The notes under the pieces: model-generated | What the model saw: only the letters and a program-made list of their open reading frames with translations | Told to the model about the DNA's origin: nothing | Databases searched by the model: none | Made by a program: the position numbers and the translations under genes | NCBI RefSeq assembly: GCF_003019035.1 | Contig: NZ_CP027447.1 | DNA length: 64,000 bases | Origin: Escherichia coli | GTDB taxonomy: Bacteria > Pseudomonadota > Gammaproteobacteria > Enterobacterales > Enterobacteriaceae | Reading direction: 5' to 3' (one strand) | Shown: piece after piece, positions 4,549-4,848 of the stretch | Layout: the number at the start of each line of letters is the position of its first letter | How positions within the stretch are numbered: the first letter of the stretch is position 1

Positions 4549-4848
4549 AAATCATCCTTAATTAACTGGTATGGAAGGTCACTCGTTTTCAAACCCGATT
4601 ATGTGATCAGGTTGTTATTATTTAGATTAATGTTTAAATTTTTTAATTTCTTGATGTGAAGTTGATGAAACTTTGAAAATTTAATATTCTTAATTGTTCC
4701 CTTCTTTATAAGAAGAGCAAGGTGCCATCATTAGAGTGACAGAGTGGGATGTTTAAGATCATGCTTCAGATTATTTTTTGTTTCTCTGCAGTGAATTAAT
4801 AATCATCACAGATAATTTCATTCTGAAATTACTTCTTTTGGGAGTGTT

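Follow-up and report, generated by a model that had tools for sequence, protein, structure and literature searches.

The CTTCTT-TAT-AAGAAG dyad upstream of the fimbrial operon in genomic island OI-1 of Escherichia coli is very probably a chance palindrome without a function of its own, lying in a horizontally acquired, AT-rich spacer that precedes cryptic fimbriae. Of the operator features that could be tested here, namely an excess over chance, conservation and recurrence, the dyad displays none, and every comparative test that we applied to it gave the outcome expected for a non-functional dyad. At 30% GC, each intergenic spacer should contain roughly one perfect 6+6 palindrome. One candidate regulatory site is struck off; otherwise the dyad is of little consequence. 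A true operator would be a first handle on the control of the cryptic OI-1 cluster, the source of the flagellar repressor FmrA in EHEC, and would be of moderate specialist interest.

Genomic setting of the spacer

The window, the whole 64-kb stretch of DNA that was analyzed, is 100% identical in this region to E. coli strain SCU-301. Gene identities were taken from the RefSeq annotation of SCU-301 and from Pfam (Table 1). The intergenic DNA had originally been described as an AT-rich spacer of about 300 bp between a fimbrial major-subunit gene and an EspX-like gene. That description was accurate in length, composition and both neighbors, which are a PF00419 protein and annotated espX1. With the minus strand encoding both flanking genes, the spacer follows espX1 and precedes the fimbrial operon in the direction of transcription. 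A chaperone-usher operon is recognizable from its PF00419 subunit, PapD-like chaperone and PF00577 usher (Pfam E values from 7e-9 to 6e-167), and RefSeq agrees. GC content is 30-43% in the island vs 46-58% in the neighboring core genes.

Locus and gene order are those of OI-1 (z0020-z0025) of EHEC O157:H7, which occupies the same nhaR-rpsT interval with an adhesin-like gene, usher, chaperone, major subunit and espX1 in that order (PMC10877973, PMC9387321). The function published for OI-1 is that of Z0021/FmrA, a motility repressor (reviewed in PMC10877973 and PMC9387321). We found no promoter or operator map for the spacer in the literature. The key OI-1 paper is reportedly that of Allison et al. 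(2012, J Bacteriol). An O157-like strain has a spacer 96% identical to that of the window, with the dyad intact.

In the identical strain SCU-301, espX1 is labeled "frameshifted" by RefSeq. This pseudogene label looks doubtful, because the 473-aa ORF of the window aligns without gaps to EspX1 of the O157-like strain (92% identity). Between espX1 and rpsT, again in AT-rich DNA, Rfam gives a SAM-V riboswitch hit below threshold at 6363-6428 on the plus strand (29.9 bits; gathering score, 41; E = 0.056), which is probably due to chance.

Table 1. Features of the fimbrial locus, in window coordinates, with variable sites per site compared among the E. coli copies of the spacer
Feature	Position	Strand	Description	Variable sites
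Fimbrial-family gene	truncated by window start	-	RefSeq annotation of SCU-301	
Outer-membrane usher gene	819-3269	-	intact here, 816 aa, PF00577	
Periplasmic chaperone gene	3282-3965	-	PapD_N and PapD_C domains	
Fimbrial major-subunit gene	4015-4548	-	177 aa, PF00419	
Spacer	4549-4848	-	exactly 300 bp, 29.7% GC; 3' of espX1, 5' of the fimbrial operon	52/256 (whole spacer; 4593-4848 sampled)
Low-variation promoter-proximal block (left block)	4593-4700	-	holds the predicted sigma-70-like promoter	10/108
Dyad CTTCTT-TAT-AAGAAG	4701-4715			2/15
Right block	4716-4848			40/133
Second dyad, TAATTTCA-TTC-TGAAATTA	4813-4831		longer than the flagged dyad, perfect arms, same spacer	
espX1	4849-6270	-	473 aa, type III effector family, weak pentapeptide-repeat match	
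rpsT		-	RefSeq annotation of SCU-301	

The dyad occurs at the level expected by chance

The dyad spans 15 bp, with perfect 6-bp arms around a 3-bp spacer, and reads ...TTGTTCC CTTCTT TAT AAGAAG AGCAAGG... with its flanks in the window. Its sequence was present as originally described, although the coordinates given for it, 4700-4714, were one base too far to the left. From the center of the dyad to the subunit start codon, which is 3' of it on the coding strand, is about 160 bp. The dyad can be extended imperfectly to CCCTTCTT-TAT-AAGAAGAG at 4699-4717, with 7 of 8 arm positions matching.

As a null for dyads, we used 1,000 dinucleotide-preserving shuffles of the 300-bp spacer. Perfect dyads with 6-bp arms turned up at least once in 58% of the shuffles when the gap between arms could be 0-6 bp, in 75% when it could be 0-10 bp, and in 14.5% when it had to be exactly 3 bp. 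The 64-kb window itself holds 227 such dyads with gaps of 0-10 bp, or about 1.06 per 300 bp. The figure of 0.12 expected occurrences of the exact dyad word is post hoc and refers to the wrong null. Judged by the shuffles, the dyad lacks the symmetry beyond local base composition that would mark an operator. Its word also occurs only once across the 64-kb window, even with one mismatch allowed, and this absence of repeats elsewhere in the window argues against an operator as well.

The same spacer has a second dyad, which starts 18 bp past the espX1 stop codon (Table 1), and several further, shorter, AT-only palindromes. As RNA, the second dyad would be an AU-only stem of -5.3 kcal/mol that lacks a following U-tract, and it differs among strains.

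Variation among E. coli copies

We compared the spacer in 31 E. coli copies: the window, 7 complete genomes chosen across the identity range, and 23 copies from metagenome assemblies or MAG contigs, which were located via an anchor adjoining the dyad with the dyad itself left out. The 31 copies represent 19 haplotypes. There was no difference in variability between the dyad and the spacer (Fisher p = 0.74), and p ranged from 0.23 to 0.74 across all the regions with which the dyad was compared. The dyad is intact in 26 of the 31 copies, which fits an operator. However, the remaining five have arm-breaking substitutions (G4712T in four, including strain NCTC86, and C4701A in one), and in none of these five is there a compensating change on the opposite arm. 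An operator would be expected to be conserved above the flanking non-coding DNA with its symmetry kept; the dyad is neither.

The spacer is nevertheless uneven: the left block is threefold less variable than the right block (10/108 vs 40/133, Fisher p = 6e-5). This low variation could reflect functional constraint or a different recombination history. The left block contains the only 9/12 sigma-70-like match that a consensus scan found on the coding strand, with a -35 element TTAAAA at 4646-4641 and a -10 element AATAAT at 4622-4617. If this match is the promoter, the center of the dyad would be near -98. An IHF consensus match, CATCAAGAAATTA, was also seen by eye at 4659-4647 on the minus strand. 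Regulatory information in the spacer, if there is any, would most likely be in this block, and the comparative data favor the block over the dyad as the place to find the promoter and its control. An 8-bp deletion polymorphism at 4672-4679 (the TTGAAAAT region) occurs in many deletion-type haplotypes.

A sister lineage and a distant homolog

Searching with the major-subunit protein returned a 90%-identical ortholog, on contigs that share the gene order of the window and are about 90% identical to it over 7.5 kb, including ribF and rpsT. On the strength of this identity and shared order, we assign these contigs to a divergent Escherichia lineage. There, the espX1-side arm CTCTTCTT is replaced by GAACTTTT (minus strand) with AAGAAG kept, so the dyad is lost. 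Identity between the window and this sister lineage is 88% in 4593-4700 vs 73% in 4716-4848. No comparable dyad was found upstream of a homologous operon, 37% identical, in another organism. Short operators can evolve fast and be lineage-specific, so the loss of the dyad in the sister lineage is no proof that it lacks a function in E. coli.

A search of species-representative genomes with the subunit protein yielded only two E. coli contigs, mis-binned in MAGs. These MAGs are labeled Collinsella sp. and Bacillota bacterium, and their contigs carry the E. coli fimbrial gene at 99-100% identity, which looks like mis-binning or contamination.

A possible regulator binding site

The dyad could instead be the operator of a dimeric transcription factor that acts on the OI-1 operon from about -98, for example a NarL/FixJ-type response regulator with TTCTT/AAGAA-like half-sites. 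We consider this unlikely. The arms are perfectly symmetrical, the dyad is upstream of the best promoter-like match, and a related half-site, TAAGAATATT, is found 10-20 bp away at 4692-4683 on the minus strand. Set against the 14-position consensus of the RcsAB box, this half-site agrees at positions 1-10. The orientation of the dyad, TTCTT...AAGAA, is however the reverse of the RcsAB box, AAGAA...TTCTT, and the annotation of the island includes no regulator gene. The sister lineage also speaks against an operator, since one arm is gone there although the operon start and the proximal block are kept. The original prediction that the dyad could be a regulator binding site is therefore unsupported: a dyad of this class is expected by chance, and this one is conserved no better than its flanks, is broken without compensation in some E. 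coli copies, and is absent both from the sister lineage and upstream of the distant homologous operon.

A variant of this explanation seems very improbable to us, namely an operator that arose recently and only in E. coli, through which some dimeric regulator would tune the OI-1 operon, and FmrA in O157. In that case, G4712T and C4701A would be natural variants in regulation.

Consensus sequences for Lrp, CRP, Fur, PhoP, RcsAB and ArcA sites were compared with the dyad, and none fits it. Elsewhere in the spacer, an ArcA-like AGTTAATTAA is located directly before the ribosome-binding site, and the half-site at 4692-4683 resembles half an RcsAB box. Partial matches of this kind to regulator consensus sequences are what AT-rich DNA gives.

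A possible RNA hairpin

The dyad could also act as RNA, either in the 3' UTR of espX1 or in a read-through or long fimbrial leader, where it would be a weak terminator or a 3'-end stabilizer. Read on the strand that encodes espX1, it lies 134-148 nt past the stop codon of that gene, and the minus-strand transcript could form an 8-pair stem, CUCUUCUU-AUA-AAGAAGGG (4699-4717), with a predicted energy of -7.4 kcal/mol and z = -2.9 in a 27-nt frame. Three of the 8 pairs are G-C and one is G-U. In a 51-nt frame, however, the fold is ordinary (z = -0.85), and the spacer as a whole has z = -1.3. Among 11 distinct sequences there were 0 compensatory pairs, and 4 of the 8 pairs depart by breaking only; the stem is also lost in the sister lineage. 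We regard a role as RNA as having very little probability.

More specific forms of this idea were rejected. A conserved RNA hairpin is at odds with the lack of covariation, its pairs being simply broken. As an intrinsic terminator of espX1, the dyad would offer a weak stem followed by GAACAAUUAAG, with no U-tract, and a terminator scan was empty at the dyad. Rfam had no match in the spacer at E <= 1. A minus-strand ORF of 18 codons, found by eye with its ATG at 4762 and its TAA in the dyad loop, was discarded because C4760T alters the start codon in several haplotypes.

The idea of a phase-variation switch

It is barely credible that the dyad, or the inverted repeats that overlap it, is part of a device for phase variation, whether a fimS-type invertible segment or a pap-type Dam/Lrp switch, and we consider this reading largely refuted. 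Like fimS of type 1 fimbriae, the spacer is about 300 bp of AT-rich DNA upstream of a fimbrial major-subunit gene. One inverted-repeat pair, 4522-4536/4693-4707, encloses the 5' end of the subunit gene and overlaps the left arm of the dyad, and there is a second pair at 4551-4568/4789-4806. These two best pairs match at 13/15 and 14/18 positions, respectively, but a pair matching at 13/15 or better was present in about 7% of shuffles. Unlike at fimS, no FimB/FimE-like recombinase gene is adjacent and the flanking repeats are not convincing. The annotated neighbors are only nhaR, fimbrial genes, espX1 and rpsT, among which there is no recombinase gene and no papI- or papB-like gene.

The original prediction had also held that no fimS-like invertible switch is present and had proposed a search for inversion in read data. 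We searched assemblies, using the two hypothetical inverted forms as queries against 5,426 complete genomes. The region was present in 3,628 E. coli genomes, all of which matched the inverted queries in separate pieces; 0 had a match to either form that covered 80% or more of the query. With weak repeats, no adjacent recombinase and neither inverted form in these genomes, none of the hallmarks of fimS (flanking inverted repeats, an adjacent recombinase and both orientations in nature) was found, and the prediction was upheld.

The resemblance to the pap Dam/Lrp region is confined to the two GATC sites upstream of the fimbrial genes in the window strain, at 4605 and 4757. These are 152 bp apart and not about 102 bp as in pap, and the distal site is lost in most haplotypes through T4759G. 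A conserved pair of GATC sites about 102 bp apart, with papI/papB-like genes, is thus not found here. Nor does the dyad resemble the consensus for Lrp sites.

A cryptic and often degraded operon

Low-GC islands and cryptic E. coli fimbrial promoters are usually silenced by H-NS along AT-rich DNA and not through one operator. K-12 is reported to have cryptic chaperone-usher operons with H-NS-silenced promoters (Korea et al. 2010). OI-1 resembles such fimbriae in the low GC content of the island and in its often degraded operon, and also in having many short AT-rich palindromes that are individually insignificant. From general knowledge of such regions, H-NS would bind along the AT-rich spacer and silence the region.

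Among complete E. coli genomes with the region, roughly two in three align only from 4593 rightwards. All four such genomes that we examined have an identical 2,442-bp deletion (2151-4592, with 3-bp microhomology), which takes the first 373 usher codons, both the chaperone and the major-subunit gene, and 44 bp adjoining the subunit start codon. The deletion allele keeps the dyad and the predicted promoter block, and has an in-frame stop just before the junction. Since the dyad is kept in genomes whose operon has been destroyed by the deletion, selection on control of the fimbriae is not required to explain it there.

The O157-like strain shows another form of degradation. In contrast to the intact usher of the window strain, its usher is split by an internal stop into ORFs of 633 aa and 124 aa (window 819-1193; O157-like locus 1420-1794). 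We infer that the 124-aa ORF (MIPHRENH...) is probably Z0021/FmrA. The methionine at the FmrA start is internal in the intact 816-aa usher of the window and is an isoleucine in a deletion-type strain.

In some strains an IS1 element is next to espX1. In NZ_CP024147.1 (797450-801563), IS1 directly adjoins espX1 and stands in place of the spacer, the subunit gene and the greater part of the chaperone gene, an arrangement that recalls the IS1 copy between nhaR and rpsT in K-12.
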